Shown in pieces: positions 21,925-50,342 of a DNA stretch of 64,000 nucleotides (positions within the stretch are counted from its first letter, which is position 1; every line of letters starts with the position of its first letter). Under the pieces are notes generated by a model. It was not told the origin of the DNA. It was given only the letters and a program-made list of their open reading frames with translations, and searched no databases. Origin of the DNA: Candidatus Latescibacterota bacterium (lineage in GTDB: Bacteria > Latescibacterota > UBA2968 > UBA8231). A program made the position numbers and the translations under genes. Location of the stretch: assembly GCA_965223905.1 (NCBI GenBank), contig CBDCXV010000001.1:192001-256000 (forward strand), read 5' to 3'.

Positions 21925-21978
21925 AACTCAGCTCGTAGTAGGGGTCGTCCCATGGGCGACCGACTGAAATCGCACATG

Positions 21979-31089: not shown

Positions 31090-31956
31090 TCAGCCTGCAA
31101 CGGCGGCTGCAGACTCTGGAGCCAGCAGGCCCATCAGCCGAGACAGAGTGGGGGCCAGTTCATCCCGGCGCACCACGCGATCGATGAAACCATGCCGCAG
31201 CACGTTCTCCGCTATCTGAAACCCATCCGGAAGCTCGTCGACTCCGAGGAACTGCTTGATGACGGAGGGTCCGGCGAATCCGACGCGGGCCCCCGGCTCG
31301 GCGAGGATGACGTCCCCGAGCATTGCAAAGCTGGCCGTCACTCCCCCGTACGTCGGATCTGCCAATACCGATACATAGAGCAGGCCGGAATCGGAAAAGC
31401 GCCGCAGCCGGGCGCTTATCTTGGCCATCTGCATCAGCGAAAAAGTGCTTTCCTGCATCCGGGCTCCGCCCGACTGACAGACGATGATCAGTGTGCGCCG
31501 GTCGGCGATGGCGCGATCTATCAAGCGCGCGATTTTCTCTCCCGTTGCCCCTCCCATGCTTCCGAGGATGTAGCGGGTATCCATGATACCGAGGGCGACG
31601 AGGTGACTGTCGAGCAAGCCGGCGCCTGTCCAAACCGCTTCGTTGAGTTTGCTGGCCTTGCGTCCGTCGCGGATTCGGTCGGTGTAACGGCGATGGTCGC
31701 GAAAGCGCAGGGGATCGGCGGTTGCGATGCCGGCGTTCAACTCCTCGACCGTCCCAGGGTCGAACAGCAGGTCGACGTATTTGTCGAAGCCGATGTGAAA
31801 GTGGTTTTCGCAGCGTGGGCAGACCCAGCCATTGCGCTGGAGGGCATTGTGATACGTGGCCTCGCCGCATTGATCGCACTTCGACCAGATACCCTCAGGG
31901 CTCTCGCGACGGATGCGGGTCAGAATCCCGCTTTTCATTTTTTCGAACCAGCTCAC
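31090..31956 (-). CDS. accD: Acetyl-CoA carboxylase carboxyltransferase beta subunit
   Basis: Zn finger KCDQC...CPRC, GSMG, SGGARMQE, PTYGGVTASFAMLGD. Confidence 0.96.
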   Translation of the reverse strand: MSWFEKMKSGILTRIRRESPEGIWSKCDQCGEATYHNALQRNGWVCPRCENHFHIGFDKYVDLLFDPGTVEELNAGIATADPLRFRDHRRYTDRIRDGRKASKLNEAVWTGAGLLDSHLVALGIMDTRYILGSMGGATGEKIARLIDRAIADRRTLIIVCQSGGARMQESTFSLMQMAKISARLRRFSDSGLLYVSVLADPTYGGVTASFAMLGDVILAEPGARVGFAGPSVIKQFLGVDELPDGFQIAENVLRHGFIDRVVRRDELAPTLSRLMGLLAPESAAAVAG

Positions 31957-32387: not shown

Positions 32388-33038
32388 TCAGACGAGCCCG
32401 TGCCGGCGCAGTTTCGGCAGCAGCCTGCGGCGCGCGCTGTAAATTCGGGAACTGACGGTTCCGATCGGGACCCCCAGCACGCGGGCAATCTCTTCGTACG
32501 ACAGTTCTTCCATGCTGTTGAGCATCAGGGCTTCGCGAAGTCCCTCGGGCAGTTCGTCCACCAACCTGAGCACCACGCGCCGGGTTTCGGCAGAAATACA
32601 CTCCGCTTCCGGATTGGCGGAGAATGCTCGAGGATCCGGGGGGTTGAACAAATCGTCGTTTCCGTGGTGCAATCCCAGCCGGTACCAGTTGCTGCGCGAG
32701 CGGTCGCGGCGACGATTGAGGCTGAGGCGCAGGACGATGCGCAGAATCCAGGTTTTCAGCGAGGAATTGCCGCGAAAGCTGACCAGCGCCGCGTGAATCT
32801 TCACGAATGCGTCCTGAACGACTTCCTCGGCGTCTTCAGGATCCAGCAGCACCCGGTAGGCCAACCCGTACGCCAGGGAGTGAAATTCCCTGACAAGTTC
32901 GGCGAAGGCCGAGCCGTCTCCGGCCACTATGCGGCCAATGCGCTCCTCTTCGCCCGCGCCGACTTCGGGTCTCGCGTTTTCGACGAGCTTCAACTCTGCT
33001 CTTCTGCTGGGCGAAGATCTGTCTGCAGGTGACCCCAT
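32388..33038 (-). CDS. ECF (RpoE-type) RNA polymerase sigma factor
   Basis: DAEEVVQDAF, FRGNSSLKTWILRI, LSYEEIARVLGVPIGTVSSRIYSAR. Start uncertain (33038 or 33107). Confidence 0.92.
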   Translation of the reverse strand: MGSPADRSSPSRRAELKLVENARPEVGAGEEERIGRIVAGDGSAFAELVREFHSLAYGLAYRVLLDPEDAEEVVQDAFVKIHAALVSFRGNSSLKTWILRIVLRLSLNRRRDRSRSNWYRLGLHHGNDDLFNPPDPRAFSANPEAECISAETRRVVLRLVDELPEGLREALMLNSMEELSYEEIARVLGVPIGTVSSRIYSARRRLLPKLRRHGLV

Positions 33039-33136
33039 GATAGATACCCCAATCGACACCGATGCCTGTATGCCTGTTCGGCGAAAGCGAGCCCCGACGA
33101 CAGGCATATTGACATAGCTATTTGTAAAATAAGAAG

Positions 33137-36100
33137 ATGGATCTTCTCATCGGGCGTTGTCAATTGCTCGCTAAGGCAACCATTGTTTCCCTGTTTGCCG
33201 GTTGCGGGGCAGTATCGGCGGTAATGCCGGACGAGGGTCTGGAAGCGAGGCTGAAGGACCGAATCGAGCGGCTGGCGGCCATGGGCTCGAGGGTTACCGG
33301 ATATCCCGGCGCCTCCGCAGCCCCGAGATACCTGACGGACTACCTGAAAAACCTGGGTGTGCCCGAAATCCACCAGCGGCGGTTTCACACTCCCGTCCCC
33401 CTCGACCATGGGGCCGTCCTGCGCCTCGCAGTGGGACCGGATACGAGCGCGTACGAGCTCCTCCACATGTTGCCCAACCTGGTACGCACTTCCACCGTCC
33501 CCTTTCCCGGAATCACCGGTCTCCTGTTCTACGCCGGAAGCGGTGAACCTTTCGAGATGGAGGGTTCCCGAATCAAGGGAGCCGTCGCCGTCTTCGAATA
33601 CGACTGCGGCCGTCGCTGGGTTCGCGCCTTCGACCTCGGCGCGGAAGCCGTCATCTTCCTGGCGCCCTCCGACCCTGGAGGCAGCCATCGTTGGGAAAGC
33701 TCGCAGAAGTATCTGACGACGCCGGCCGACTTGCCGCGATTCTACGCCCCGGCACCCGCGAGCATGGCACTGCGGGCCGTGCTGTCCGACACCTCGCGGC
33801 AGGTGCCCGGACACCGTGCGGTCATCTCCGGAAGCATGGTCTGGCACAACGTGACCGGCCAAACCGTCGTCGCCGTGATTCCGGGCACTGACCCCACCCT
33901 TGCCCACGAGGCCGTAGTTGTCGGCTCGTACTACGACGCCATCTCCGCAGTGCCGGCCATGGCTCCGGGGGCCGATCAGGCGAGCGGTGTGGCTGCCTGG
34001 ATGGAGCTGGCTGCCGCTCTGGCAGCCAGCCCGCCCCGGCGCACCGCCGTTCTCGTGGCGACGGCAGGGCACTTTCAAGCGCTGGCAGGAATGCGCGATT
34101 TCATCGCTTTCCTGCGCTCCTTCGACACGGCGGGGAAAGGAAGCGTCGAGAGTCCCCAAGCTCCCTCACTGGATCAGCCGTTGAGAGCCCTTCTCTCCGA
34201 TCTGGAGATCGAATGCTACATCGGCCTCGACCTTAGTTCCCGCAGCCGGCAGCTGGCACTCTTACAGGGCGGCCCACCGTACCGAGTGCGCCGAATCCCA
34301 CCTTCGATTTTCGACCCGATCACCTCGTTTACCGAGACGTACGAGGAGCGCCACCTTCGGGGTGAGATGATTCTCGGCGGGGCGTTGAAGCCCCTGCGCC
34401 GGCGCCGGCTCATCGGTGCCCTGCCGGAGCGGATTCCGGTCTCCGGGTCGGTGGCTGCGCTGTCCGGTATGCTGGGGGTGACCCTGGTTTCGGCAGGGGA
34501 CGAACGCTCCCGTTTCGATTCACCGGGCGATCTCCCCGGGGGGTTGGAGTACGCCGACCTCGCGGCACAGACCCGCTTCGTCGTGGCCCTGATCCAACAC
34601 CTTATCGACGCAGATATCGACATGTCCCCCGAGGGCGGGAGCGACTCCTTCGGCAGGCTTGACGGGCGCGTTGTGAGTTGGGGTCCACACAGTTACCAGC
34701 CGGACGAACCGGTCGCTGGAGCTCTCGTTCGCGTGCGCACTTTCGGCAAGGCGACCGTGGGGGTGCGCGCGGATCCGCTGGCGATGACCGGCGACGACGG
34801 GCGCTTCACGGTGACCGGTCTCGAGGCCCGGACGCTCTACCTTAAACCGGCGCATCTCGAGGCCTACGTGGTCGATCCAGCGTCAGGCAAGGTAGTCGCC
34901 GCTCTCGATCGCGGTCCGCTCGGAATCGGCAAATACCCCGCCGAAGTCATCATGGACGATCTCGAGAAGGAGTGCACCCTGGTGACTTTCCCTTGCGCCG
35001 GGGTGACCCTTTTCGACCTCGTGGACCCCCGCCGGCTGGCGGTTCTCGACCAGGTCCGGATCCTGGAGTCTGGAAAAGAGGCGGAACCCACGAGCTTCGG
35101 CTACTGCCTCCCACCCACAGCCGCTCAGGTCGAGCGCAACGCCTACCACCACCTCATCGGACCCGACACCGAAAGCACAGCGGTGCTGTTCGTTCCTCCC
35201 GGCACGGACTTCAAGGTGATTCTTGCCGGTGGCCGCTTCGGCCTCGGCCGCCGCGGCCTGCTTCTCAACAGCCGCCCGAATGCCGCCACCGGTTCCGGGT
35301 ATCCGGCGAGCGCTTCCCGAGTGCCGGCGACGGCATTGCACCTCGCCCGCGACACCCACCGGCTCAACCGCGATCGCCTGCAGCAACTGGAATCGCACGG
35401 AATCAGCAGCTCGCTTCTGACGGACTTGAACGGCGCCGCGGAAGCAGCTCTGAGAAAAGCAAGCGCCGCCTGCGAAGAGGGCCGCAACAATGCCTGCACG
35501 GGAGGGAGCCGCCGCGCCTGGGCGCTCGCATCGCAGGCATACGGGGCGACGCAGAGTCTGTCTGCCGGCGCCGTCCAGGGTGTCGTGTTCGTTTTGTTTC
35601 TGCTGATTCCCTTCGCGGTCCTGGCGGAACGCCTGTTGCTGGCGAGCCGTGGAATCCGCGGTCAGGTCGTCGGCTCGGTCGCCGTTTTCGCAGTCGCCTT
35701 CACCGCCCTGCGATCTTCTCACCCTTCCTTTAAACTGTCGCTCTACCCCTCGCTGATCCTGCTCGGATTCGCCATCCTGTCCCTGAGCCTGACGGTGATC
35801 GGTCTGGGGATAGCGCGCCTCAACGCGCAGCTGCGGGCGGCCGAATCCTCCGCATCCATCCTCCACCGCGCCGGCACCGCGAGGGGGGGGGTTCTCTGGC
35901 GTGCCTTCGCGCTGGGTGTCGCACAGATGCGCCGACGTCCCTGGAGAACGGCGCTCACCGCGGCGACACTCGTGCTGTTGACCTGCACCCTGACCTCGTT
36001 CACATCGGTACGGGCCGGTCATCGTTCCAACCGCACCCCGATCTCCGGCCACCTCCCGGACCGTGCCAGCCTCCCTGCCCTTGTAGTGCGCATGCCCGAG

Positions 36101-37570
36101 TTCGCCGCCATCGAGGCCCCCGTGATCGACCACCTCGCGTTGCGTTTTGCCAGTGGTACGATCGTGCCGCGCAGGTGGTACCTGAAGCCGGTGCAAGTGC
36201 GGAGCCGTACCGGCAACAGCCGTATCGAGGCGGTTGCAGGGGTTTCGGCTTTCGAAAACCGCGTCAACCCGATCGACGACGCCCTGCTTGCAGGGCGATG
36301 GATGGACCCCGGTGAACTCGCCTGTGTGCTGCCGGCGAACCAAGCGGACCTTCTCGGCGTGCAAGACGACCACCTCGGTACCGCCACCGTCCGCGTCCTC
36401 GGCACTGACTACCCGGTCGTGGGCATTATCGACGCCGAGCGCTTCGACCAGCTACGCGATATCTCCGGCGACCCGTTGACACCCCTCGACTTCGAAGTCC
36501 ACCAGCCGGACGAGAAACGGGTCGGCATCGATCGCGATGGCCTGCAGCCGGCCTTCGTCCACTTGTCCAGCCGACAGATACTCTTCCTCTCCAACGACAC
36601 GGTGGCGCGCTGGGGGGAGTGGTCCCGCGTCGCCTCGATCGCCGTCCTCTTCGAGAATCCGGGGACCGCCCGCCGGGAGATCGACGAAATGGCCCTGACC
36701 TCCGAGCTCAACCTCTTCGCCCGCCTGGACGACGGTACCTTTCGCATCAACACCGTCGGAGTACGCGTCTTCAGCGGCCAGCGCGGTGTTTGGATCCCGC
36801 TGTTGATCGCTGCACTGATCGCCTTCAACACCATGCTGGGAAGCGTGTACGAGCGCCTTTCCGAGATCGGGACTCTGAACGCCATCGGACTCGCCCCAGG
36901 TCACGTGGCCGGGCTCTTCCTCGCCGAAGCCGGCGCCTTCTGCCTGCTGAGCGCGGTGCTGGGATCTCTCCTCGGATTCGGAATCGCCCAGGCCGGCACC
37001 TTCGACCTGCTTCCCGGGCTGACAGTCAACTATTCGTCTCTGTCGGCTGTCGCCACCGTGGCCGCGGTGATGGCCGTGGTCCTCGCCTCGGCGGCCTACC
37101 CTGCGCGCATGGCCTCGCGGATCTGCACGCCGGGGATCGAGCGCAGCTGGACCTTGCCGCCACCGCGGGGAGACCTCCTGACGCTGTCGCTGCCCTTCTC
37201 CCTGAACCGGAAAGAGGCCCACGGCTTCGCGCGGTTCCTGCGCGAATACCTCGGGGCTTTCGACGATCAATCGATCGGGGCGGTGTTCTACGCCGAAGCC
37301 ATCGCGGAGAAGTCAGCGGGAGAAATCGACGCCCGGGTCTGGTTGGCTCCTTTCGACCAGGGAGTTTCCCAGACGGTTCGGCTGATTCCCATGCCCGATG
37401 TCGACCAGCGGTTCTTCACGTTCAGAGCAGCCATACAGCGGCTTTCCGGAAACGAGTCCACTTGGTGGCGGGCAAACCGGATTTTCGTCGACTCGCTTCG
37501 CAAGCAGTTTCTCATCTGGCGCAACCTCGCAGCTGAGCACCGGGCCGCCTACCTGGAGACAGGGCCATGA
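33137..37570 (+). CDS. M28-peptidase-like / prealbumin-like / MacB-FtsX permease fusion protein
   Basis: VVVGSYYDA...PGADQASG (M28 fold, metal ligands altered); PVAGALVRV..TGDDGRFTV; TM bundle; RRRPWRTALT; SVYERLSEIGTLNAIG...LFLAEA (FtsX). Confidence 0.8.
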   Translation: MDLLIGRCQLLAKATIVSLFAGCGAVSAVMPDEGLEARLKDRIERLAAMGSRVTGYPGASAAPRYLTDYLKNLGVPEIHQRRFHTPVPLDHGAVLRLAVGPDTSAYELLHMLPNLVRTSTVPFPGITGLLFYAGSGEPFEMEGSRIKGAVAVFEYDCGRRWVRAFDLGAEAVIFLAPSDPGGSHRWESSQKYLTTPADLPRFYAPAPASMALRAVLSDTSRQVPGHRAVISGSMVWHNVTGQTVVAVIPGTDPTLAHEAVVVGSYYDAISAVPAMAPGADQASGVAAWMELAAALAASPPRRTAVLVATAGHFQALAGMRDFIAFLRSFDTAGKGSVESPQAPSLDQPLRALLSDLEIECYIGLDLSSRSRQLALLQGGPPYRVRRIPPSIFDPITSFTETYEERHLRGEMILGGALKPLRRRRLIGALPERIPVSGSVAALSGMLGVTLVSAGDERSRFDSPGDLPGGLEYADLAAQTRFVVALIQHLIDADIDMSPEGGSDSFGRLDGRVVSWGPHSYQPDEPVAGALVRVRTFGKATVGVRADPLAMTGDDGRFTVTGLEARTLYLKPAHLEAYVVDPASGKVVAALDRGPLGIGKYPAEVIMDDLEKECTLVTFPCAGVTLFDLVDPRRLAVLDQVRILESGKEAEPTSFGYCLPPTAAQVERNAYHHLIGPDTESTAVLFVPPGTDFKVILAGGRFGLGRRGLLLNSRPNAATGSGYPASASRVPATALHLARDTHRLNRDRLQQLESHGISSSLLTDLNGAAEAALRKASAACEEGRNNACTGGSRRAWALASQAYGATQSLSAGAVQGVVFVLFLLIPFAVLAERLLLASRGIRGQVVGSVAVFAVAFTALRSSHPSFKLSLYPSLILLGFAILSLSLTVIGLGIARLNAQLRAAESSASILHRAGTARGGVLWRAFALGVAQMRRRPWRTALTAATLVLLTCTLTSFTSVRAGHRSNRTPISGHLPDRASLPALVVRMPEFAAIEAPVIDHLALRFASGTIVPRRWYLKPVQVRSRTGNSRIEAVAGVSAFENRVNPIDDALLAGRWMDPGELACVLPANQADLLGVQDDHLGTATVRVLGTDYPVVGIIDAERFDQLRDISGDPLTPLDFEVHQPDEKRVGIDRDGLQPAFVHLSSRQILFLSNDTVARWGEWSRVASIAVLFENPGTARREIDEMALTSELNLFARLDDGTFRINTVGVRVFSGQRGVWIPLLIAALIAFNTMLGSVYERLSEIGTLNAIGLAPGHVAGLFLAEAGAFCLLSAVLGSLLGFGIAQAGTFDLLPGLTVNYSSLSAVATVAAVMAVVLASAAYPARMASRICTPGIERSWTLPPPRGDLLTLSLPFSLNRKEAHGFARFLREYLGAFDDQSIGAVFYAEAIAEKSAGEIDARVWLAPFDQGVSQTVRLIPMPDVDQRFFTFRAAIQRLSGNESTWWRANRIFVDSLRKQFLIWRNLAAEHRAAYLETGP

Positions 37571-39548
37571 GCACCACGAACCCTGCCGCCAACCGCGGGG
37601 AGGTGCAGGCAGAGTATCGCGATCTGCTGGCCACTCCACGGGAGTTCGCGGACGGCTTCACGGGGCGCACGGTACTTGGGGCATTCTTCATTGGCTTCCT
37701 GATGATGCCCGGAGCGATTTACATGGGCCTGATCGCTGGTTCGAGTCTCGGGCCGGCGGCGGAGTGGGTTACCATAATCCTGTTCGCCGAGGTGGCGCGG
37801 CGCTCATTCGCCCCTCTCGGCCGCCAGGAGATCTACGTCCTGTACTACATCGCCGGCGGACTGACGCACGTCATCGGCGGTGTCATGCTGGCCGGGGGAC
37901 CCTTCGCCAGCCTGATCTGGCATCAGTACCTCGTCCAGTCCCAGGTCGGGCAGGCACTCGTCATAGCCGAGCAGATCCCGGCCTGGGTTTCCCCTCCGGC
38001 CGATTCCCCCGCCATTGTCGAACGTGATTTCCTGCACCGGGACTGGCTCCTCCCCGCGATGCTCCTGGTAGCCGGGCAGGTGCTGGCACGCGCCGAGTGG
38101 TTCGGCCTCGGCTACCTGCTCTTCCGCGTCACCTCGGACGCCGAGCGCATGCCGTTCCCACTGGCGGCGGTTGCGGCGCAGGGGGCCACCGCCCTGGCCG
38201 AAAGCGATCAGGCGCATGCGAGCTGGCGCTGGCGCCTGTTCTGTATCGGCATGGGAATAGGGATCCTGTTTGGAACGGTGTTCATCGGGCTGCCGGCCCT
38301 GTCCGGTCTCGTCGCCGCGCGTCCCCTCGAGCTCCTGCCCATACCGTGGATCGACTTCACCCGCGACTTCGAGAACCAGCTCCCCGCGGCCACCCTAGGA
38401 ATCGGCACCGACCTCGGGCTTGTCCTCGCCGGATTCGTCCTGCCCTTCTGGGTTGTCGCCGGGTCGTTCGCCGCAGTTGCTTTTCAGACGGCTGCCAACC
38501 CGATCCTGCAGCAGGCGGGTCTGCTCGAGCGCTGGCAACCCGGGATGGATGCGATTGCGACACACTTCTCCAACGACCTAGACATCTGGCTGAGTGTATA
38601 TATCGGCACCGGCGCCGCGGTGGCCGCCGCTGGAATCGCCCAGGCGGCAACCTCCTTCCGCCGCAATGGCAAAGGAAAGGGTGCCCCCCCGCCACCAAGC
38701 CGAGGGGACTTTCCCCTGTGGGCTGCGGCGATGGCATACCTGCTGGCAGCTGCCGGGTACGTCCTCCTGTGCCGGCAGCTGCTTGCCGATGATCGCTTTC
38801 CCCTGCTATTCCTGCTCGCCTTTGCGTTCCTGCTGACCCCCCTGATCTCCTACGTCAATGCCCGCATGATCGGCCTGACCGGACAGACCGCCGGGATCCC
38901 CCTGGTGCGCGAGGGGGCCTTCCTGCTCAGCGGCTATCGCGGTGTCGACATCTGGTTCGCGCCCATTCCCTTCAGCGATCACGGACGACGCGCCCAGCTG
39001 TTCCGCGAGGTGGAACTGACGGGGACCCGTTTCACCAGCATCCTCAAGGCGGAACTGCTGATTCTGCCTGTGGCGCTAGGGTGCGGCTTTCTTTTCTGGG
39101 CTCTGATCTGGAAACTGCAGCCGATTCCGTCGCTGGCCTTTCCGTTTGCCCAGAAGTACTGGCACCTGTTCGCCATGCGGCAGTTTTTGTGGTTCTCCTT
39201 TACGACCGAGGGTGGTCTCGATCTGCCGGAGGTCGTGCATTCCGGCTGGGTCGCAGCGCCTTCTCTCTCACCGGCGTCGCGCTCGTCGCCGCCAGCGTGT
39301 GGGGATTCCCGCTGGCCCTGGTTTACGGATTCATCCGCGGTCTGCAGTCAATGCCCCATCTGCTCATACCCGAAATGCTGGGGGCATGCCTCGGCCGCTA
39401 TTACTTCGAGCGCCGCTTCGGACGCAACCGCTGGCGCCGCTGGGCGCCCGTATTGATGGCCGGCTTCGCTTGCGGCAACGGCCTGATCGGCATGGCCGCC
39501 GTCGCCATCGTCCTGATCGCCCGCTCCGTCGCTCAGCTTCCTTACTGA
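37567..39548 (+). CDS. OPT-like polytopic membrane transporter, frameshifted near 39257
   Basis: Many TM segments; GPAAEWVTIILF, DAERMPFPLA. The hydrophobic C-terminus (WAPVLMAGFACG..LIGM) is in frame 39081-39548. Confidence 0.7.
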
Positions 39549-39555
39549 GAACTCG

Positions 39556-41481
39556 ATGCCGGTGACAACCCCGCGTTCCATCGCTTTGGCTGTCGCCGCC
39601 ATTTTCCTAGGCTCCTGGTCGATTCAGCGAGTTGATCTCGTTTACGCGGGACCCTCCCTGACTTACGGCCCGCTTCCCGCACTGCCGATTGCCCTATTGC
39701 TGCTCCTGGTCCTCCTGCGCCGCCTAGGGGCTGGCTGGCTTCAGTTCAAAGAGGGCGAACTGCTAGGGTGTTACCTGATGACTGCTGTCGGCCTTCCGTT
39801 GGCGGCCGGGGGGTACACCCACTACCTGCTTCCCGGGCTGGTCACCGGTTTTTTCCAGTTCAGCGACCCTGCCGGGCGGTACTACCCCTTTCTCAAACTG
39901 ATTCCCGACTGGATGGTGCCTGGCCGCGAAGGCAGCCTCGCCGTAGACGGGTTCTTCCAGGGTCGAGTCGACGTGCCTTGGACAGCCTGGGCGCTGCCCC
40001 TGATGGCATGGGCAGCGCTCGCCATCGCCTTCTGTGCCGCCATGTGGGGGTGCATGACGCTGCTGCGCAAGCGCTGGCTTCAGGAGGAACGCCTGCGCCT
40101 CCCACTCGCCGAACTGCCCCTGACTCTCGCGCTCAACGGTTGGGAACTGCTGCGCAGCAAGGCATTCGCGGTCGGCGCCGCGGTGCCGGTCCTGATCTAC
40201 GGGCTGAACGGACTCCACCACTACCACGTTTTCCCGGCGGAAATCCCGCTGTCCTTCAACTTCGCGGAAGTGCTGACAGAACAGCCGTGGGCAGCCATTG
40301 CTCCTTTCACCTCGCGGTTCGAATTCACCGTCTCCCCATTCCTGGTCGGGATCGCCTACCTGCTGTCAGTCGAAGTCGCCTTCAGCACCTGGTTCTTTTT
40401 CCTTCTGACCCGGGGGCAACTCCTCGTCGCCGAACTATTAGGGCGAAGTGGCGATCAGGGCGTCTTCATCGGGCTCGGGGGACAGTGGCGGGAATGGCCA
40501 AATTTCACACCCCACCTGCATGCACAGGCCCGCGGCGGCCTGCTCTGTCTGGCAGTGCTGAGCCTTTGGGCTGCGCGCAAGGCACTTGCCGATGCCTGGC
40601 GGCTAGCGCTGTGCAACCGGGGCCATGAGCGCCTGGGCTTTCTTTGCTTGACGGCTGGCAGTGCCGGCCTCCTCGCCTGGGGGCACGCTGCCGGCCTCTC
40701 GCTCCCCCTAGGGGCAATCTTCGTCCTCATGCTGCTGCTGACGGCCATCGGGATGGCCCGCCTGCGCCTGGACGCCGGTCTACCCGTGGTCAGCGTTTAC
40801 TTCCTAGTTCCCAACCTTCTCTTCTTTGCCCGGGGAACCGGCCCGGGTGTTTTCAGCCCTTCCGAATACGTCGCCCTTGCGTTTCTCAACCTCCTGAGCT
40901 ATTCCGGAATCGCCGCGGTGACTATGCTGCACGTCGAAGGCTGGAAGATGTCCGGGGCGCTGCGCACCGGCGCCACTCATATCGGGGCAGCCGTCGGGGT
41001 GGGCTTGCTCGCGGGTCTGGCCTGTGGTTTCTGGTCGATGCTTGAACTGGTGTACGATCCGGGGATCTTTACCCTCGATCGCCACGGCGGTGCCCGTTCG
41101 GCAGCCCGCCTGGGCCGCTACTACCACTACCTGTACTCCGAGGCGGGAACCCGCCCGGCTGGTCCCGACCTCATCAGAATGGGCGCCGTGGCAGCGGGAT
41201 TCGCCGTCACTGCAGCTCTCTCATTTCTGCGCACCCTGTTCACTCAACTGCCGTTTCACCCGGCCGGATTCGTCTACGGAACCGGTATCGGCTACCTGAT
41301 CTGGGGGTCCGCGCTGATCGGCTGGACCGTCAAGGTTCTCGTAGTCCGTTACGGAGGAGCTGCGCAGTATCGCCGCCTGCGCCCCTTCTTCATGGGGCTG
41401 ATCGTGGGAGACCTTTTGATGCGTCTGATGTGGGCCGCGGTTTCCCTGCTCGGCGAGCCCGGAGGCGGGTACCGCATTTGA
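39556..41481 (+). CDS. DUF6785/DUF6784-like polytopic membrane protein (OPT-related)
   Basis: PW..W..PL..W, LRKRWLQEERL.LPL, PFHPAGF, VRYGG..YRRLRPFFMGLIVGD; many TM segments. Confidence 0.75.
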   Translation: MPVTTPRSIALAVAAIFLGSWSIQRVDLVYAGPSLTYGPLPALPIALLLLLVLLRRLGAGWLQFKEGELLGCYLMTAVGLPLAAGGYTHYLLPGLVTGFFQFSDPAGRYYPFLKLIPDWMVPGREGSLAVDGFFQGRVDVPWTAWALPLMAWAALAIAFCAAMWGCMTLLRKRWLQEERLRLPLAELPLTLALNGWELLRSKAFAVGAAVPVLIYGLNGLHHYHVFPAEIPLSFNFAEVLTEQPWAAIAPFTSRFEFTVSPFLVGIAYLLSVEVAFSTWFFFLLTRGQLLVAELLGRSGDQGVFIGLGGQWREWPNFTPHLHAQARGGLLCLAVLSLWAARKALADAWRLALCNRGHERLGFLCLTAGSAGLLAWGHAAGLSLPLGAIFVLMLLLTAIGMARLRLDAGLPVVSVYFLVPNLLFFARGTGPGVFSPSEYVALAFLNLLSYSGIAAVTMLHVEGWKMSGALRTGATHIGAAVGVGLLAGLACGFWSMLELVYDPGIFTLDRHGGARSAARLGRYYHYLYSEAGTRPAGPDLIRMGAVAAGFAVTAALSFLRTLFTQLPFHPAGFVYGTGIGYLIWGSALIGWTVKVLVVRYGGAAQYRRLRPFFMGLIVGDLLMRLMWAAVSLLGEPGGGYRI

Positions 41482-41532
41482 CAACCGAAGTCGTTCAATC
41501 GTAACATTTTGCCAGTTTTGCTGCTCCAAAGA

Positions 41533-41572
41533 GCGGTGTATATTCCCCATCTGCGGTGTATATTCCCCATCT
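41533..41572 (+). repeat. Perfect 20-bp tandem duplication
   Basis: GCGGTGTATATTCCCCATCT occurs twice (41533-41552 and 41553-41572). Confidence 0.9.
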
Positions 41573-41573
41573 A

Positions 41574-42788
41574 ATGAACTCGCCGGTACACAGAGCTTTC
41601 ACAGAAATACTGCGGAGGCTTCCAAAATTTGCCCCGTCCGTTTCTGCGGGGATCGTCCTAGCCATGTTCGCCTTGGGGCTGTCCCTGCCCGATGCAGGGG
41701 CCGAGACCGGCGAACCCGTAGCCGCAGACAGCCTTCGCAAATACCGGTTTCTCGCCAAAACCGCTCGCGAAAAGAAGCAGACTGAAGACGCGCTGCGATA
41801 CTACGGGCAGGTGATCCACTACAAGCCCGACGATCTCAAAGCCCATTATTTCAGCGGCAGCCTGCTCGCAAACAAGGGAGACACGGCGGCAGCGAAACGG
41901 CACTTGCTCATCTGTGTCGCCCTCGACTCCCTGCACGTCAACAGCAACGTGCTGTTGACGCAACTCTACCTGCGCCAGGAAGATCCCGATTCGGCTTGGG
42001 TGTTCCTGGAGCCCGTTTTCGACATCAAGCCCGCAGTCTCGAAGTACCACCGGTTCAGGCGCCAAATCGCGGATCTCCATCGCATCCAGGGAAACCACAA
42101 AGCCGCTATTTCTCACTACGAAGCGCTGGCAGCCAACAGCGAAACCGACGCGCGTCAGATCTTCGAGCTGCTCTCCCAGCTGCACGAAGCCAATGGCGAC
42201 ACGGAACAGGCTCTTGCCTTGAGTTCGCGCGCCTTGTCGTCCCCGGCCTCCGAAACGAGCCCGTCCGCGATTGAAATACTCAGCCGCGTGCTGGAGCTGC
42301 AGGCCAGTAGCGGTGATCGTTCAGGTGCCTACGAAACGCTCAGACAGTTGGTGCGCCTCGACTCCCTGAGCAGGTATTCCTACTTCGACCGCATGGCTGC
42401 GATCGCTACCGATGCCGGCGATCTTTCGCAGCAGGTGGAAGGGCTCGAGGGTATGGTCGAAGCCCAACCACATGACCTGGGCCCATTGGCTACACTGGTC
42501 GAGCTCCACCTGAAGGGCAACGATCTCAACGCTGCTTCGACCTGGCTGCGTAGGGGCCTCAAGGTCGACAAAAAGGACGGCCACCTGCTGCTGCTTCAGG
42601 GTGAGCTGTTGATACTGCAAGGAGACGAAGATGCGGCAATTGCCGCTTTCGAACGGTCGCGACAGGATCCCGAGTGGGAAAAAGTCGCACAACAGCGCAT
42701 CTGGCAGCTGCGACCCCCGGAAACTGAAGAAGAGAAGCTGAAACGGTCATTCTTCGGAGCAAGTGAAGAAGACCAAACCGGTGGCTGA
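41574..42788 (+). CDS. TPR-repeat periplasmic protein
   Basis: Hydrophobic signal segment followed by helical TPR-like repeats; upstream of exbB. Start uncertain (41556, 41574 or 41664). Confidence 0.75.
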   Translation: MNSPVHRAFTEILRRLPKFAPSVSAGIVLAMFALGLSLPDAGAETGEPVAADSLRKYRFLAKTAREKKQTEDALRYYGQVIHYKPDDLKAHYFSGSLLANKGDTAAAKRHLLICVALDSLHVNSNVLLTQLYLRQEDPDSAWVFLEPVFDIKPAVSKYHRFRRQIADLHRIQGNHKAAISHYEALAANSETDARQIFELLSQLHEANGDTEQALALSSRALSSPASETSPSAIEILSRVLELQASSGDRSGAYETLRQLVRLDSLSRYSYFDRMAAIATDAGDLSQQVEGLEGMVEAQPHDLGPLATLVELHLKGNDLNAASTWLRRGLKVDKKDGHLLLLQGELLILQGDEDAAIAAFERSRQDPEWEKVAQQRIWQLRPPETEEEKLKRSFFGASEEDQTGG

Positions 42789-42834: not shown

Positions 42835-43458
42835 ATGTGGGAATTGTTTCAGGATGGTGGATGGGCGATGTATCCACTGGTAGTACTGCTGGTGCTCGGA
42901 ATCGCCATTGCCATCGAAAGACTGATCAACCTGAGCCGAGCAGGTATCGACGCAAACGCGTTTTCCCAGAACCTTGAAGAGGCCCTGAGGTCTGGCGGGC
43001 CCGACGAGGCCGCACGGATCTGTTCGGAAACGCGGGGGCCCGTCGCCTCGGTCATCCACGCCGGTTTGTTGCGAATGCACCGCGGCATCGATCACGTGGA
43101 AAAGGCGATCGACAATGCCGGAGCAGTGGAGATGGCTTTCCTCGAACGAGGTATGGTCTGGCTTTCCACGGTCGCCAACCTCGCTCCCATGATCGGCTTC
43201 CTCGGGACAGTGAGTGGGATGATCACCGCTTTCCAAGCGATCGAAAGGGCCGGCGACGTTGAACCGTCCATGGTTGCCGGAGGAATTTCGGAGGCGCTTA
43301 TCACTACGGCATCCGGTCTTATCGTCGGTATCATCATTCAATTCCTTCACAACTTTTTCGCATCCAGGATCGACCGTATCATCGCCGACATGCAAGAGCA
43401 TACTGCCGGTTTCGTCGACCTGCTGGCGGAAACGGGTCAGGCTGACGCCGCGCAATAA
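42835..43458 (+). CDS. exbB: MotA/TolQ/ExbB proton channel protein
   Basis: APMIGFLGTVSGMI, GISEALITTASGL; RBS GAGGAG. Confidence 0.9.
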   Translation: MWELFQDGGWAMYPLVVLLVLGIAIAIERLINLSRAGIDANAFSQNLEEALRSGGPDEAARICSETRGPVASVIHAGLLRMHRGIDHVEKAIDNAGAVEMAFLERGMVWLSTVANLAPMIGFLGTVSGMITAFQAIERAGDVEPSMVAGGISEALITTASGLIVGIIIQFLHNFFASRIDRIIADMQEHTAGFVDLLAETGQADAAQ

Positions 43459-43498
43459 AAGCGCCGCAGAGCCAATCCACTGACAGCGCCGGAATCGG

Positions 43499-43912
43499 AT
43501 GAACTGGAAACGAGGGCACAGAGTCCCGCCGGAGATACCTACCGCCTCGATGGCGGATATCGCCTTTCTTCTGATTGTCTTCTTCCTTGTGACGACGACG
43601 ATGAATCAGGACAAGGGCCTGTCTTTGCACCTGCCGCCGTTTGGTGAAAGCAAAGAGATCAAGCAGAAGAACATCTGCAACGTCTGGATCAACGAACGGG
43701 ACGAAATCGCCTTCTTCGAAAACGAAAATCTGACCTTGGTTTCTTTCGGTGATCTCCGAGGCCAGATACAGAGCCGACTCGCGGCCAACGACAAACTTAT
43801 CATTTCGCTGAAGGCGGAACGCGGGGCCACGTATCGGATGTTTGTCGACGTACTCGACGAACTCAAACTGGCGGGCGCGACCCGCATCTCGATCGCGGAG
43901 CCTGAGCAGTGA
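43499..43912 (+). CDS. exbD: ExbD/TolR-family protein
   Basis: IPTASMADIAFLLIVFFLVTT. Confidence 0.9.
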   Translation: MNWKRGHRVPPEIPTASMADIAFLLIVFFLVTTTMNQDKGLSLHLPPFGESKEIKQKNICNVWINERDEIAFFENENLTLVSFGDLRGQIQSRLAANDKLIISLKAERGATYRMFVDVLDELKLAGATRISIAEPEQ

Positions 43913-44328
43913 AGTTCAACCGCAAAGCAACGGTCGCCAGTGTGATCCCGACAGCTTCCATGGCGGACATCTCTTTTCTGCTGCTGGTTTTTTTCATGGT
44001 GTCGACCGTGTTTGTCCGCTACCGCGGCATTCCGGTTGAATTGCCCGACGCAAAAAGTGTCGAAAAACTCGAGATGAGGAGGCATGTGACCAGCGTCTGG
44101 GTCAGCAAAACCGGTTTGGTCAATATTGACGACCAAACGGTTCTGCTCGAACAGGTGGGGCAGCTCATCTACTCCAAACTGAGCGCGAATCCTCGGCTGA
44201 TAATCTCCATCAAGGGAGATGGCGAAGCCGAATTCGGTGTCATTTCCGATGTCCTGCAGGAGCTGCGCAAAGTTGAGGCATTGCGCGTCAATTTCGCCAC
44301 CGACCGGGAGAAGCAGCCACAGCCATGA
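43909..44328 (+). CDS. exbD: ExbD/TolR-family protein (second copy)
   Basis: IPTASMADISFLLLVFFMVST. Confidence 0.9.
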   Translation: MKFNRKATVASVIPTASMADISFLLLVFFMVSTVFVRYRGIPVELPDAKSVEKLEMRRHVTSVWVSKTGLVNIDDQTVLLEQVGQLIYSKLSANPRLIISIKGDGEAEFGVISDVLQELRKVEALRVNFATDREKQPQP

Positions 44329-45011
44329 CCAGCGCCGGCATCCCGCAGCGGCCTTGGAAAATGCCGCGACGAAAAGCGCCTGAAGCGGATCTTCGGCAGA
44401 CCTACCGCAAGGCCTTCTGGCTCTCGGTTGCCGCCTCCACCGCAGCTCATGCCCTGCTATTCATCATTTTTCCATCGTTCGAAGTCGAAGCCTTCGAAAA
44501 GCCGCAAGCCCCGGTCATTATCGAGCTGGAGCAGATACCGGAAACCCGCCAGGAACGGCGTCCGCCGCCTCCGCCACGACCCGTCGTCCCGATTCCCACC
44601 GACAGCGAAGACATTCCTGACGACGTTACCATCGAAACTACTGAACTTGACCTTTTCGACGATTTGGCACCCCCGCCTGAATTTGACGAGCTCCCCAGCA
44701 TAGAGGTCGAAGAAGAGGAAGAGGAGATTGTCGACCTCTGGAAGGTCGAGAAGAAACCGGTGCGGAAGAAGCAGGTTCGACCCGAATATCCGGTGATCGC
44801 CCGAAAAGCAGGTATCGAGGGCTCGGTAACGGTCACCGTACTGATCGGCAAGGACGGCAAGGTCGAGGCGATCGGTCAGATAGTCGGCAACGAAATCTTC
44901 CACGAAGCCGCCAAGGCGGCCGCCCTGAAAACGGAGTTTACACCCGCGATCCAGAACGACAAGCCGGTCAAAGTGTGGGTTAGTCTCCCGTTCAAATTCC
45001 ACCTCAATTGA
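44325..45011 (+). CDS. tonB: Energy transducer TonB
   Basis: TM helix with S..H motif, Pro-rich linker, PEYPVIARKAGIEG...FTPA. Confidence 0.9.
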   Translation: MTSAGIPQRPWKMPRRKAPEADLRQTYRKAFWLSVAASTAAHALLFIIFPSFEVEAFEKPQAPVIIELEQIPETRQERRPPPPPRPVVPIPTDSEDIPDDVTIETTELDLFDDLAPPPEFDELPSIEVEEEEEEIVDLWKVEKKPVRKKQVRPEYPVIARKAGIEGSVTVTVLIGKDGKVEAIGQIVGNEIFHEAAKAAALKTEFTPAIQNDKPVKVWVSLPFKFHLN

Positions 45012-45198
45012 ACCTTTGGCTGCGCTGATCCACGCGATCACGGTTGCCATTTAGGATATTTACATCTCGGAGGTGCTCTTGATGCATCGATTTTGGAAGC
45101 CACCGAGATCCCTCCAAGCATCTCCCCGCCGGTAGGTACACACATCCCCGAATAACGCCACCTCGTGCACAACAACAAAGGTGGTCGGGAGGTCGCAC

Positions 45199-45654
45199 AT
45201 GCGTTGCCCGTTTTGCGATCATCAGGACGACCGCGTGGTCGACTCGAGGTCGTGCCGCGATGGCCAAGCCATCCGCAGACGCCGGGAGTGCATCAACTGC
45301 AATCAGCGGTTCACCACCTACGAATACATCGAACACGCGCCGCTGACCATCATCAAGCGTGACGGCAGTCGGGAGCCTTTCGACCGAGGCAAACTCCTCG
45401 AAAAGATTCGCCTCGCCTGCTACAAGACACCCGTCTCCAGCGATCAGATCGAAGAACTCGTCGACCAGATCGAAAGCGAGTTGGGCAACCTCACCGAAAA
45501 GGAAGTGCCGAGCATTCAGGTTGGTGAGCTGGTCATGGATGCGTTGCGCAGGTTGAACGAAGTCGCCTATGTCCGATTTGCGTCGGTATATCGACAATTC
45601 AGGGACAAGAGCGATTTCGTCCGCGAGTTGGAGCAGCTCTCGCCGGCCCCTTGA
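45199..45654 (+). CDS. nrdR: Transcriptional repressor NrdR
   Basis: MRCPFC..VVDSR..IRRRREC..C..RFTTYE, ATP cone, VAYVRFASVYR. Confidence 0.97.
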   Translation: MRCPFCDHQDDRVVDSRSCRDGQAIRRRRECINCNQRFTTYEYIEHAPLTIIKRDGSREPFDRGKLLEKIRLACYKTPVSSDQIEELVDQIESELGNLTEKEVPSIQVGELVMDALRRLNEVAYVRFASVYRQFRDKSDFVRELEQLSPAP

Positions 45655-45820
45655 GAACCTTGGCGGCGCTCCACCCATTTTGCGAGGCGCCGCACTAAAC
45701 GCCTGCTCGCCTGCAAGGGCAAATTTCCGCCTCCGTCAGGCATCCACCACCGTAGAAAATCGACGTTTTTGAGCCTCCTCAGCCCCGCCGGGAGATCGAT
45801 CCCGGTCTTTTTGAAATTCC

Positions 45821-45850
45821 TTGACACGCTCGAATCAAGGGCTGTATATT
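45821..45850 (+). promoter_or_regulatory. Putative sigma70 promoter of nrdJ
   Basis: TTGACA (45821-45826)-N18-TATATT (45845-45850). Confidence 0.65.
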
Positions 45851-45860
45851 CGAGACGTTT

Positions 45861-45876
45861 CTACAAGATCTTGTGT
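45861..45876. promoter_or_regulatory. NrdR box upstream of nrdJ
   Basis: CTACAAGATCTTGTGT fits the consensus acaCwAtATaTwGtgt and lies just downstream of the -10. A weaker candidate lies 31 nt downstream. Confidence 0.7.
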
Positions 45877-46050
45877 TCCGCTTGGTAGACAGCAGGAGAT
45901 AATGTGGTTCCCAGCGGAACTGATGTCCTCTTGTATTCTCCCCGCATATCCTCCTGTATATACTGATTTTGGGGCCTTTTGGGCTGGCGCTGAGCTTGGC
46001 CCAAAGGCGGAGCCCGTATTTTGCGCGCGATGCGCACAAGAGAGGGAAAA

Positions 46051-48444
46051 ATGTCGTCCAATATCCATGAATCAGGGGCCTCCGAAACCGCAGACGATAC
46101 CGCGGCAAAGAAAGGCCATCGCCTCGAGGACTTACTGGCTCAGGTGGAAGGTCGCGGCTACAGGCGCAACGGCCACGACGACATTCTGAAAAATGCGGCA
46201 GACGCAGGGACATACTATGCCGGCAATGATCTTGCGATCGATGTTCTGCGCAGCAAGTACCTGGCTCCGGGAGAGACCGGACCCCTGCAAATGTGGGACC
46301 GCATCGCCCGGGCGATGGCCTCGGTAGAAAAGGAGGAGGCCCACTGGTACAACCGCTTCTTCACCCTTCTTCTCGACTTCAAGTTCATCCCCGGGGGTCG
46401 AGTTATGCACGGGGCAGGCCGTGACGAAGCCCGCCGCAAACCTACGCTCTCCAACTGCTACGTCATTCCCATAGAACAGGACAGCCTCGAGGGTATTTAC
46501 CGCTGCTTGAGTGAATCGGCGATGGTGTACCGGACCGGCGGCGGGGTCGGTACTGACCTGTCGTCGCTGCGGCCCAAGGGTGCACCGGTCAACGCGACCG
46601 TCGACCGGTCTCCGGGGTGCACCGCTTTCATGAACCTGTTGAGCGAAAGCACCAACGCGGTGTCCCAGGCGGGCAGGCGAGGTGCGCTGATGCTGACTCT
46701 ACGGGTCGATCATCCCGACATCGAGGACTTCATAACCATCAAGAATGACGTTACCCGAACCAAGGTGCAGTACGCCAACATCAGCGTTCTGATAACCCAC
46801 GAGTTCATGGAAGCCGTCCTTGGCGACACGGACTTCGACCTCAGGTGGGGAGGAAAGGTGTACCGCACCGTGCGCGCGCGGGATCTGTGGAACACCATCA
46901 TCGCCAATGCCCATTCCAGCGCTGAGCCTGGGATCATCTTCTGGGACACGATGAAGGAGTACCACAACGTCGAATATGCCAATCCGCTGACCAGCACCAA
47001 CCCCTGCGGCGAACAGCCCCTGGCTTCGTACACTGCGTGCAACCTCGGCAATCTCAATCTGGTGAAGTTCGTCCATGAAGACGGCACATTCGATTTCGAG
47101 GATCTGGCCGAGAGCACCCGGGTCGCGACCCGTTTTCTCGACGACGTCATCGATTACAACATGGACAATCACGCCCTTCCAAAGATCAGAGAGGCGGTGG
47201 AATCGGACCGTCGCGTCGGGCTGGGTATCACAGGCTTGGCGGACGCGCTGATACTCATGAAGCTGAGGTACGACTCGGACGAGGCGCTCGACGCGGTCGA
47301 GAAGGTGATGCAGACGATCTGTTACTCCTCCTACGAGACTTCCATCGACCTTGCGAGCGAAAAAGGACCCTTCACGCTGTTCGACTGGAACGGCATTTCG
47401 CAAAGCAAGTTCATTCAGAGTCTGCCGAAGAGCATTCAGGACCGCGCAAAGAAAAATGGCTTGCGCAACGCGACCCTGATCACGGTTCCTCCGGTCGGGA
47501 CCGGGTCCATCGTCGCCCAGACGACTTCGGGCATCGAGCCGATCTTCTGCACCAGCTACAAGCGGCGAGTCAAACAGGCAGACGGAGAATCTTTCCGCGA
47601 GTATAAAGTGTATCACCCGCTGATTCAGCGCCTCTTCGGCGACGACGAGAACCTGCCCGACTACGTCGTAAGTTCACACGAAATCGATCCGTATTCCCGT
47701 GTAAGGATGCAGGGGATCATACAGAAGTACACCGACAGCAGCATCTCTTCGACGATCAATCTGGCGGAGGAAACAAGTGCAGAGACGGTGGGGGACATCT
47801 ACATCACCGCCTATAGGGAGGGCCTCAAGGGCGTAACCGTCTACAGGGAGGGAAGCCGCCAGGGAATCCTGCAGACCGCAGACAGTCAGAAGGAGAAGCA
47901 GCCACCGCAGAAAGAGGATACTCCTGCAGCCGAAGCTCCGTCGGCTTCCAGGCGCAGCGAGCGCGGCTACCACCCGCGCCGCCGGCCGGCGGTCACCACC
48001 GGTGTGACCGAACGCATCCGCACCGGGGAGGGCAACATTTACGTCACTATCAACGAGGACGACCAAGGACTGTGCGAGGTTTTCAGCACCATCGGCAAGG
48101 CGGGAGGAAACGCCGCCGCGCAATCCGAAGCGATCAGCAGACTGATTTCGATAGCGCTGCGCTCGGGAATCGACCCGCAGGAAATCGTGAAGTCCCTGAA
48201 GGGTATATCCGGACCCACCCCGGTCTGGGAAGACGGCGAACTGATCCTGTCGGCACCTGACGCCATAGGCCGCGCTCTCGAGCGCTTTCTGCAGCGTGGA
48301 GTGGAACCTGGTGCCGAGTCCGCGGGCTCGGATCCCGATAGCAGGGAGGCCAAATCGAGCGCCACCTGCCCGGAGTGCGGCTCGACAGTCGTGCACGAGA
48401 GCAACTGCCTCAATTGCAAGCACTGCGGCTGGTCCAAGTGCTGA
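46051..48444 (+). CDS. nrdJ: Class II (adenosylcobalamin-dependent) ribonucleotide reductase with TSCPD-like domain and C-terminal Zn ribbon
   Basis: TLSNCYV, GGGVG, RRGALM, TNPCGEQ, ACNLG, GLKGVTVYR, CPECG...CKHCGWSKC; no N-terminal ATP cone. Confidence 0.93.
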   Translation: MSSNIHESGASETADDTAAKKGHRLEDLLAQVEGRGYRRNGHDDILKNAADAGTYYAGNDLAIDVLRSKYLAPGETGPLQMWDRIARAMASVEKEEAHWYNRFFTLLLDFKFIPGGRVMHGAGRDEARRKPTLSNCYVIPIEQDSLEGIYRCLSESAMVYRTGGGVGTDLSSLRPKGAPVNATVDRSPGCTAFMNLLSESTNAVSQAGRRGALMLTLRVDHPDIEDFITIKNDVTRTKVQYANISVLITHEFMEAVLGDTDFDLRWGGKVYRTVRARDLWNTIIANAHSSAEPGIIFWDTMKEYHNVEYANPLTSTNPCGEQPLASYTACNLGNLNLVKFVHEDGTFDFEDLAESTRVATRFLDDVIDYNMDNHALPKIREAVESDRRVGLGITGLADALILMKLRYDSDEALDAVEKVMQTICYSSYETSIDLASEKGPFTLFDWNGISQSKFIQSLPKSIQDRAKKNGLRNATLITVPPVGTGSIVAQTTSGIEPIFCTSYKRRVKQADGESFREYKVYHPLIQRLFGDDENLPDYVVSSHEIDPYSRVRMQGIIQKYTDSSISSTINLAEETSAETVGDIYITAYREGLKGVTVYREGSRQGILQTADSQKEKQPPQKEDTPAAEAPSASRRSERGYHPRRRPAVTTGVTERIRTGEGNIYVTINEDDQGLCEVFSTIGKAGGNAAAQSEAISRLISIALRSGIDPQEIVKSLKGISGPTPVWEDGELILSAPDAIGRALERFLQRGVEPGAESAGSDPDSREAKSSATCPECGSTVVHESNCLNCKHCGWSKC

Positions 48445-50064: not shown

Positions 50065-50229
50065 GGTGTCAAAGGTCCTGCCAGCCGATTGTCGGCACCC
50101 GGGAAAAATTCAACCGGATGTCCATTTGTGGTTGTTTTTAAAGAAGGTTGTGGGACTTTGGCAATTACGGAAAATGTGTGTGGACGGAAATTGTACCGGG
50201 GTTGCTGGAGGTTTGCTATGCTCTGAAGC

Positions 50230-50245
50230 GCTCTATATATTGGGA
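50230..50245. promoter_or_regulatory. Candidate NrdR box upstream of topA
   Basis: GCTCTATATATTGGGA contains a perfect core CTATATATTG. Confidence 0.5.
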
Positions 50246-50342
50246 AAAATGTGGCGGCATTGGCAAAATTGAGGTATCCGACTCAATATGCAGATTTAGA
50301 TCTTATTGGCTTAAAGCATATCAACAACTACGGCACAAGGTA

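Follow-up and report, generated by a model that had tools for sequence, protein, structure and literature searches.

What drives a membrane protein of the MacB/FtsX kind when no ATPase gene stands beside it, and why is its gene packed against those of two polytopic membrane proteins? The question is raised by three genes, here called G1, G2 and G3, in a stretch of 64,000 nucleotides (nt) from the 7.9-Mb genome of Candidatus Latescibacterota bacterium (assembly GCA_965223905.1). We refer to this whole stretch, 192-256 kb of contig CBDCXV010000001.1 (C1 below), as the window. Our answer, held tentatively, is that the three genes belong to a type VII ATP-binding cassette (ABC) mechanotransducer working with OPT-fold carriers, probably in the uptake of peptide-like oligomers.

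The original prediction for this DNA described three tightly packed membrane genes. The open reading frames (ORFs), an ATGA overlap at 37567-37570 that is both the stop of G1 and the start of G2, and a 7-nt gap before G3 all bear this out. Lengths are in amino acids (aa); AF2 stands for AlphaFold2.

33137..37570, + strand: G1, a giant membrane protein of 1477 aa (Pfam, profile comparison with the PDB, hydropathy)
33230..34108, + strand: PA and degenerate M28 domain of G1, residues 32-324 (alignment to 2ek8)
36800..37123, + strand: FtsX domain of G1, residues 1222-1329 (Pfam PF02687, 47.5 bits)
37567..39548, + strand: G2, a divergent OPT-fold polytopic protein, ~660 aa when read correctly (model of an intact relative)
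39556..41481, + strand: G3, DUF6785 plus DUF6784, OPT fold, 641 aa (Pfam, AF2 model)

G1 opens with an N-terminal signal that includes a possible lipobox (LFAGC, residues 19-23), and its periplasmic region of ~800 residues runs up to about residue 810. A hydropathy scan places three extra transmembrane (TM) helices at 812-892 and then a cytoplasmic linker, the first FtsX helix (TM1) at 940-958, a periplasmic domain of ~255 residues, and TM2-4 at 1217-1326. The protein ends in a cytoplasmic tail of 150 residues that is conserved and of no recognized family, and for which an ESM Atlas search gave no usable match.

When profiles are compared with the PDB, residues 32-324 match the PA-domain aminopeptidase 2ek8 (E 7.8e-16) and YwaD (E 9.8e-12), and more weakly Nicalin (E 7.7e-6) and the transferrin receptor (E 0.04). 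The Pfam family Peptidase_M28 (PF04389) is found at residues 244-318 with 27.1 bits (cut-off 21.3), covering only profile positions 2-72 of 193, and the match recurs in 12 of 13 G1 homologues. In the alignable part of the comparison with 2ek8, outside which the C-terminal zinc ligands of M28 fall, neither the co-catalytic zinc ligands nor the general-base Glu are kept: the template's H-x-D is Y-D in G1, with Tyr in place of the zinc-ligand His, and its Glu-Glu (general base and ligand) is His-Phe. Across the 13 homologues Y266 and D267 never vary, and H312 hardly does. The domain had been called a pseudo-M28, and degenerate it is, with the replacements kept throughout the family. The order of PA and M28 domains is that of the M28 aminopeptidases with a PA domain (2ek8, YwaD), and the replacement residues are what sets G1 apart from them. 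To judge from the sequence, the head is most likely a binding domain without peptidase chemistry. Since its catalytic residues are replaced and the M28 match is partial, it resembles in its logic the binding-only relatives of the family, and Nicalin and the transferrin receptor are such non-catalytic M28 relatives.

The other end of G1 is an FtsX module. Pfam FtsX (PF02687) matches residues 1222-1329 above its cut-off of 25.5 bits, and all 13 homologues match too. Against the PDB, residues 1148-1328 align to MacB (5nik, E 1.6e-12), and the FtsX part also matches YtrF, LolF and LolC. Between TM2 and TM3 lies a cytoplasmic coupling-helix motif, YERLSEIGTLNAIGLAP, that aligns to MacB's TERTREIGIRMAVGAR; E1239 is nearly invariant, R1240, G1251, L1252, A1253 and P1254 are invariant, and the motif, which in such proteins touches the ATPase, is kept in 13/13 homologues. 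The MacB core domain is harder to recognize, with PF12704 matching only 2 of the 13 homologues and the alignment to MacB beginning only at residue 1148. NCBI names the G1 homologues (75 matches, mostly metagenome-assembled genomes (MAGs) of Latescibacterota) only "FtsX-like permease family protein" or "M28 family peptidase".

What are the two partners? G3 has Pfam matches to DUF6785 (PF20581, 300.3 bits) and DUF6784 (PF20580, 87.5 bits), in that order from N to C terminus and both above threshold; no Pfam family reaches its cut-off in G2. An OPT fold had been proposed for both proteins, and structural models agree. The AF2 model of G3, built from a 35-row alignment, has a predicted local distance difference test score (pLDDT) of 90.7 and a predicted TM-score (pTM) of 0.91, and its top Foldseek match is barley YS1 (HvYS1, 7wst_A; E 2.5e-9, TM-scores 0.69/0.73). 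For G2 we modeled an intact relative, P0079 (82-row alignment, pLDDT 92.5), which finds the same chain with E 4.9e-11 and TM-scores 0.64/0.70. The Foldseek probability is 1.00 for both models, and the only entries at E <= 0.001 are two of HvYS1.

At the level of sequence this relationship is faint. The Pfam family OPT (PF03169) matches neither G3 nor P0079, and of the window's G2 it matches only the tail, with 15.5 bits (cut-off 25.8). A sequence profile search of the PDB gave no OPT entry, with no match for G2 and three chance-level matches to Ktr/YuaA for G3, and no NCBIfam model matches G2, G3 or G4 (a further gene of the module, described below). A profile search found 1151 relatives of G2 among 1.84 billion representatives, and when 34 representatives of this wider family were scanned, 13 matched Pfam OPT at E <= 0.01 and 11 passed the cut-off. 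NCBI labels G2 relatives 'peptide transporter'. G2 and G3 had also been suspected to be paralogues on account of a shared motif. hhalign supports distant homology (probability 92.7%, E 4e-7, 309 columns, from 20 G2 and 17 G3 sequences) and aligns the motif DAERMPFPLA (G2 residues 191-200) with QEERLRLPLA (G3 residues 177-186). Only this profile-profile comparison linked them; jackhmmer within the genome made no G2-G3 connection. On the strength of the models, G2 and G3 belong to the OPT superfamily, as two branches that have diverged very far.

With the OPT/Yellow-Stripe-like (YSL) proteins (PF03169; HvYS1, 7wsr/7wst) they share the whole-chain fold, at TM-scores of 0.64-0.73, and a Pfam match that some members of the G2 family attain. 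They differ in sequence, with ~14% identity and with the window's G2 and G3 both below the OPT gathering score, and in being encoded with a type VII ABC protein. We know of no OPT member described together with such a protein. According to PMC9691689, HvYS1 is a proton-coupled elevator that forms a homodimer through an antiparallel beta-sheet. Asp446, Asp490 and Asp494 are the aspartates proposed for its proton site. Short beta-strands are present in the models of both G3 and the G2 relative, and these may correspond to the HvYS1 dimer sheet. Separately, three long members of the G2 family, P0238, P0240 and P0245 (921-1083 aa), have a PDZ domain or a beta-propeller (Reg_prop) inserted, in a region where the 806-882-aa G2 paralogues of this genome have an insert too.

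In this assembly the G2 frame breaks near residue 563. The first-frame ORF is 37567-39456, and the true tail, ending AQLPY, lies in another frame with its stop at 39548, just before the G3 ATG at 39556. Inspection of the DNA indicates that one added G behind 39255 mends the frame. We compared public contigs over 38600-39900. Three runs, each belonging to a different study, have one contig that spans the site (word depths 14.9, 27.2 and 39.5; one run is possibly the window's own source), and all three contigs have this extra G, so the frameshift is not biological. P0079 (662 aa), which is 94% identical to G2, is uninterrupted across the break site. The frameshift is an assembly error and G2 is not a pseudogene. 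Further single-base indel errors are possible elsewhere in the genome, for instance at C10:602-610 kb, where a G1/G3 locus is split over frames, and at C10:1885622-1887112, where a TAG falls inside a DUF6785 match. A rough gene call at the former gave a 2315-aa G1-G3 fusion ORF (C10:602054-609001); a better call splits the locus into several frames, and since the assembly has a proven indel error, we do not count it as a fusion.

If these proteins function together, their genes should be found together in other genomes. With one genome per species, at least 644 places encode a G1 relative; the best 80 of them, a choice biased to close relatives, gave 77 loci, from Latescibacterota, Armatimonadota, Poribacteria, WS1, Zipacnadia and MAGs labelled Gemmatimonadota. 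In 52 of the 77 the gene is well flanked (>= 2.5 kb upstream and >= 5 kb downstream). Using hidden Markov models built from this genome's own paralogues, we counted as linked the genes within 5 kb of G1 on the same strand:

25/52 loci: G2 and G3 near G1
19/52 loci: G2 only
6/52 loci: G3 only
2/52 loci: neither

The co-occurrence that the original prediction called for is therefore the rule, with G2 and/or G3 adjoining G1 in 50/52 of these loci. Gene order differs by subfamily (G1-G2-G3, G1-G3-G2 or G3-G1-G2) and adjacency is retained, which argues for selection on adjacency itself. We have little doubt that a conserved module of G1 with OPT-fold partners is real. Given the many loci with G2 only, and the fewer with G3 only, a G2/G3 heterodimer cannot be general.

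The same picture holds within this genome, which has seven paralogous G1 loci:

The window: G1-G2-G3
Two loci: G1-G2
One locus: G2, G1 and a divergent G3
Two loci: G1-G3, one of them in several broken frames
One locus (C10:2120142-2127830): G1, then a UPF0182 polytopic protein

All four G2 copies adjoin a G1, and G2 and/or G3 adjoin six of the seven G1 genes. The UPF0182 protein of the last locus (939 aa, PF03699 959 bits) stands there with no OPT-fold gene, and two ExbD genes precede this G1, so the polytopic partners of G1 may be of more than one kind.

We now come to the motor. An ABC ATPase was reported missing from the triad and its surroundings, and for the window this stands: there is no PF00005 ABC-ATPase on C1 anywhere between 79.7 kb and 321.8 kb. 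For the system as a whole it does not, as other genomes have the ATPase gene in cis and this one has an orthologous pair in trans. In loci of Armatimonadota, WS1 and Poribacteria, three further genes lie downstream or just upstream of G1-G2: G4, a small FtsX, and a LolD/MacB-type ATPase. Within 10 kb of G1 an ABC gene is present in 13/52 loci, all among the 21 without G3, and in none of the 31/52 that contain G3. The full cassette, [G3]-G1-G2-G4-small FtsX-ABC, is also found in five genomes of the same phylum, which were chosen because searches placed G1 and the small FtsX on one contig; four of these have a single G1 match and one has two truncated matches. G4 is a cytoplasmic protein of ~320 aa that belongs to no Pfam or NCBIfam family, and an ESM Atlas search with it matched unnamed clusters only. 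It follows G2 in 29/77 loci and in the five same-phylum cassettes, and the Poribacteria cassettes carry in addition a PqqD-like protein.

The present genome has one orthologue each of G4, the small FtsX and the ATPase. G4, single-copy here, stands after a G1-G2 pair on C10. The other two form a pair ~620 kb from the window (C1:853460-854992):

C1:853460-854248: LolD/MacB-type ATPase, 262 aa
C1:854279-854992: small FtsX, 237 aa, with four helices and a periplasmic loop of ~50 residues

This ATPase is 69-70% identical to the cassette-linked ATPases of other phyla, and the next paralogue is 54-58% identical to them. Between the small FtsX, taken at full length, and the cassette-linked ones the identity is 41-44%. 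In a maximum-likelihood tree of 36 rows (14 ATPase paralogues of this genome and 22 linked ATPases), the trans ATPase nests in a clade (100/99) of all 22 linked ATPases, where its sister (99/95) is the linked ATPase of a genome from the same phylum; one further paralogue of this genome is at the base of the linked clade on a long branch.

The distribution of these genes in the phylum tells a similar story. Of 121 sampled genomes, 108 have G1, with 1-7 matches each, and 101 have the small FtsX, never more than once. All 101 genomes with the small FtsX have G1, and the seven with G1 only are 60-89% complete. One family of the phylum (f10) has neither in any of its 13 genomes, at completeness up to 97%. 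On balance we think it probable that the module draws on the trans ATPase pair. The history would be simplest if the G1-carrier units of an ancestral cassette of six genes had multiplied, with the motor genes retained once.

Could the machine instead work without an ATPase? G1 would then be a passive or partner-driven receptor or scaffold for proton-driven carriers, uncoupled from any ABC protein, and the trans pair would be a separate system. All seven G1 loci of this genome are free of ATPase genes out to 10 kb, so orthology and co-distribution are what the case for the trans pair is built on; the G3-containing loci elsewhere likewise have no ABC gene over that distance, and the conserved cytoplasmic tail of G1 could stand in for the contact with a nucleotide-binding domain. 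But G1 keeps the coupling-helix motif, and the single-copy small FtsX-ATPase pair is co-distributed with G1 and linked to G1-G2 in genomes that have one G1. We regard an ATPase-less machine as unlikely.

In the reading that we favor, G1 would consist of an FtsX transmembrane module, a MacB-like core domain and an inactive head of PA/M28 shape. It would pair with the small FtsX as LolC does with LolE, with two ATPase subunits supplied in trans, and one small FtsX-ATPase module would serve all seven G1 paralogues. Driven by ATP, the G1 ectodomain might move so as to take hold of a peptide-like oligomer on the periplasmic side and, for its uptake, either pass it to the OPT-fold carriers G2 and G3 or gate these carriers. 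At this locus the substrate would have crossed the outer membrane by transport energized by TonB and ExbBD, the genes for which follow the triad:

41556..42788, + strand: TPR protein directly downstream of the triad (Pfam TPR families)
42835-43458, + strand: ExbB (Pfam)
43499-43912, + strand: ExbD, first copy (Pfam)
43909-44328, + strand: ExbD, second copy (Pfam)
44325-45011, + strand: TonB (Pfam)

The Pfam matches in 42835-45011 thus place ExbB, ExbD and TonB C-terminal domains together. Six other loci have the gene order of the window, and in these a TPR protein and TonB lie downstream in 6/6 and ExbB-ExbD-ExbD in 4/6. Within the genome, three of the six ExbD clusters are within 10 kb of a G1 gene; by rough arithmetic ~2% of the genome is that close to a G1, so chance is an unlikely explanation for this proximity. 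One G1 paralogue, on C11, has a SusC-like TonB-dependent receptor beside it.

The family of G3 points in the same direction. DUF6785 matches 58 places in the genome, 56 of them above the cut-off, and our own gene call gives 53 DUF6785 ORFs, 33 of them 600-720 aa long. Most are away from G1. Their neighbors include genes for secreted proteins with type IX secretion system (T9SS) sorting tails, with carbohydrate-binding domains, or with F5/8-type-C or FG-GAP/ASPIC domains, for TPR proteins, and glycosidase-like genes. By their gene content these look like substrate-specific utilization loci, for polysaccharide or protein, each with its own importer. That the module imports a peptide-like substrate is a possibility that we put forward with some reserve.

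Its serious rival is a role in export or envelope biogenesis, in which the OPT-fold proteins would move outward a product of the cytoplasm or the membrane, for instance a peptide or a lipid-linked molecule, and G1 would extract it or pass it on in the periplasm like MacB, LolCDE and YbbAP-TesA, or would control a periplasmic enzyme in the manner of FtsEX. According to PMC12646458, the characterized type VII ABC systems all act outward or within the periplasm. Some cassettes carry the PqqD-like protein, all full cassettes carry the cytoplasmic G4, and genes for SurA-like peptidyl-prolyl isomerases (569 and 575 aa) are next to or near two G1 paralogues on C11. PqqD-like domains are leader-peptide recognition elements for ribosomally synthesized and post-translationally modified peptides. 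On the other hand, the loci that we examined had no genes for the biosynthesis of a product, and the TonB/ExbBD and SusC-like context, together with the expansion of paralogues beside secreted proteins that look degradative, fits nutrient uptake better. Characterized OPT members are importers, according to PMC9691689. Export seems improbable to us, all things considered.

Some evidence weighs against the reading that we favor, beginning with the lack of a nearby ATPase gene at all seven loci. The phyletic match is consistent with a shared function and is not proof of it, amounting to one contrast (f10 versus the rest) among kin. OPT carriers run on protons and can do without an ABC motor, which leaves the coupling without an evident reason. 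PqqD-like protein and G4 in the cassettes fit peptide export at least as well as import, and the locus sample leans to close relatives. Physical contact between G1 and G2/G3, like the use of the trans ATPase, the direction of transport and the substrate, is something that we infer; a complex prediction for a fragment of G1 (residues 800-1000) with the intact G2 relative scored 0.10 (mark 0.32), and we draw nothing from it. Finally, a promoter-like site at 41478-41507 lies between the triad and the TPR-Ton genes and may separate the two. Such sites are, however, not commoner here than chance (2 promoter-like sites versus 2.2 expected, and 9 terminator-like versus 12.4 expected, in shuffled sequence).

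That the three are merely co-regulated, independent proteins for the same nutrient, with G1 processing or sensing in the periplasm and G2 and G3 as ordinary importers outside any complex, is very improbable: gene order around G1 varies, and most DUF6785 genes are not beside G1, so the DUF6785 fold works without it, but every G2 of this genome is beside a G1, as is G2 in 44/52 loci elsewhere, and the stop/start overlaps (ATGA here) and the 7-nt gap suggest translational coupling.

A stronger version of the favored reading is that the module represents a hybrid class, in which an ATP-driven type VII mechanotransducer (G1, the small FtsX and the LolD-like ATPase) is physically coupled to elevator-type OPT carriers, otherwise driven by protons, and gates or powers them by hydrolyzing ATP, with a shared motor and 4-7 interchangeable G1-carrier units per cell. 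This is speculative, and we consider it rather unlikely.

How does the module compare with systems that are already known? With the type VII ABC systems (MacAB-TolC, LolCDE, FtsEX-EnvC, YbbAP-TesA) it shares the four-helix FtsX module whose TM1 and TM2 are separated by a periplasmic domain, the coupling-helix motif, the LolD/MacB-type ATPase of the ancestral cassette, and an asymmetric FtsX pair such as LolC/LolE. It also has a periplasmic partner or domain as the object of work, a feature of these systems according to PMC12646458. In contrast to them, it has a G1 enlarged by ~800 periplasmic residues that include a PA/M28-like head, by three TM helices and by a cytoplasmic tail of 150 aa; it has OPT-fold partners; its second FtsX is nearly without a periplasmic domain; and one trans ATPase pair stands against seven G1 paralogues. 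In the TRAP-T (tripartite ATP-independent periplasmic) and TTT (tripartite tricarboxylate) transporters, an extracytoplasmic binding module feeds an ion-driven carrier. The likeness is one of analogy only: there is no homology, and the binding module of the present system is anchored in the membrane and joined to an ABC-type motor. The original prediction knew of no characterized system with this architecture, and none turned up in our literature search, which covered articles without their supplements and found nothing relevant on DUF6785/DUF6784 or on FtsX with an M28 or OPT family. The parts are of known kinds; the combination is undescribed.

Other genes around the triad include the following.

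32388..33107, - strand: ECF-type sigma factor, divergent from G1 (Pfam Sigma70_r2 and Sigma70_r4_2)
45181-48444, + strand: NrdR repressor, then a ribonucleotide reductase with a C-terminal TSCPD domain
23751-28235, - strand: secreted protein of 1494 aa, with DUF1565/beta-helix, He_PIG/Big_9/cadherin-like Ig domains and a FlgD_ig/Por_Secre_tail-type C-terminus

A divergent homologue of the ECF sigma gene is upstream of G1 in 3/6 orthologous loci, and its annotated start in the window is probably too far upstream. The secreted protein is probably T9SS cargo. Housekeeping genes surround the triad: accD (31090-31956), pheS and pheT (19513-22992) and topA (50148-52598). A 186-nt contig from an RNA library is identical to 38835-39020, within G2; carry-over of DNA into the library is possible.

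New in this work are the finding that a Latescibacterota genome encodes an orthologous motor pair in trans, the agreement between the phyletic patterns of that pair and of G1, the presence of the full cassette in the same phylum, the link to the Ton system, the size of the DUF6785 expansion, and the recognition of the G2 frameshift as an assembly error. For annotation, the lesson is that an FtsX gene without a neighboring ATPase gene need not mean a system without an ATPase. Type VII ABC proteins are known for efflux, lipoprotein release, control of cell-wall hydrolases and lipid extraction, and the pairing described here, with at least 644 places in the genomes that represent species of several uncultured phyla, would give mechanotransmission another job. 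If true, it could be a new way of coupling ATP to a secondary carrier. Bacterial OPT-fold proteins are, to our knowledge, almost unstudied, and DUF6785 and DUF6784 now gain a fold and a likely role. For the bacteria themselves, the expansion of DUF6785 to ~50 copies probably shapes the way they feed.

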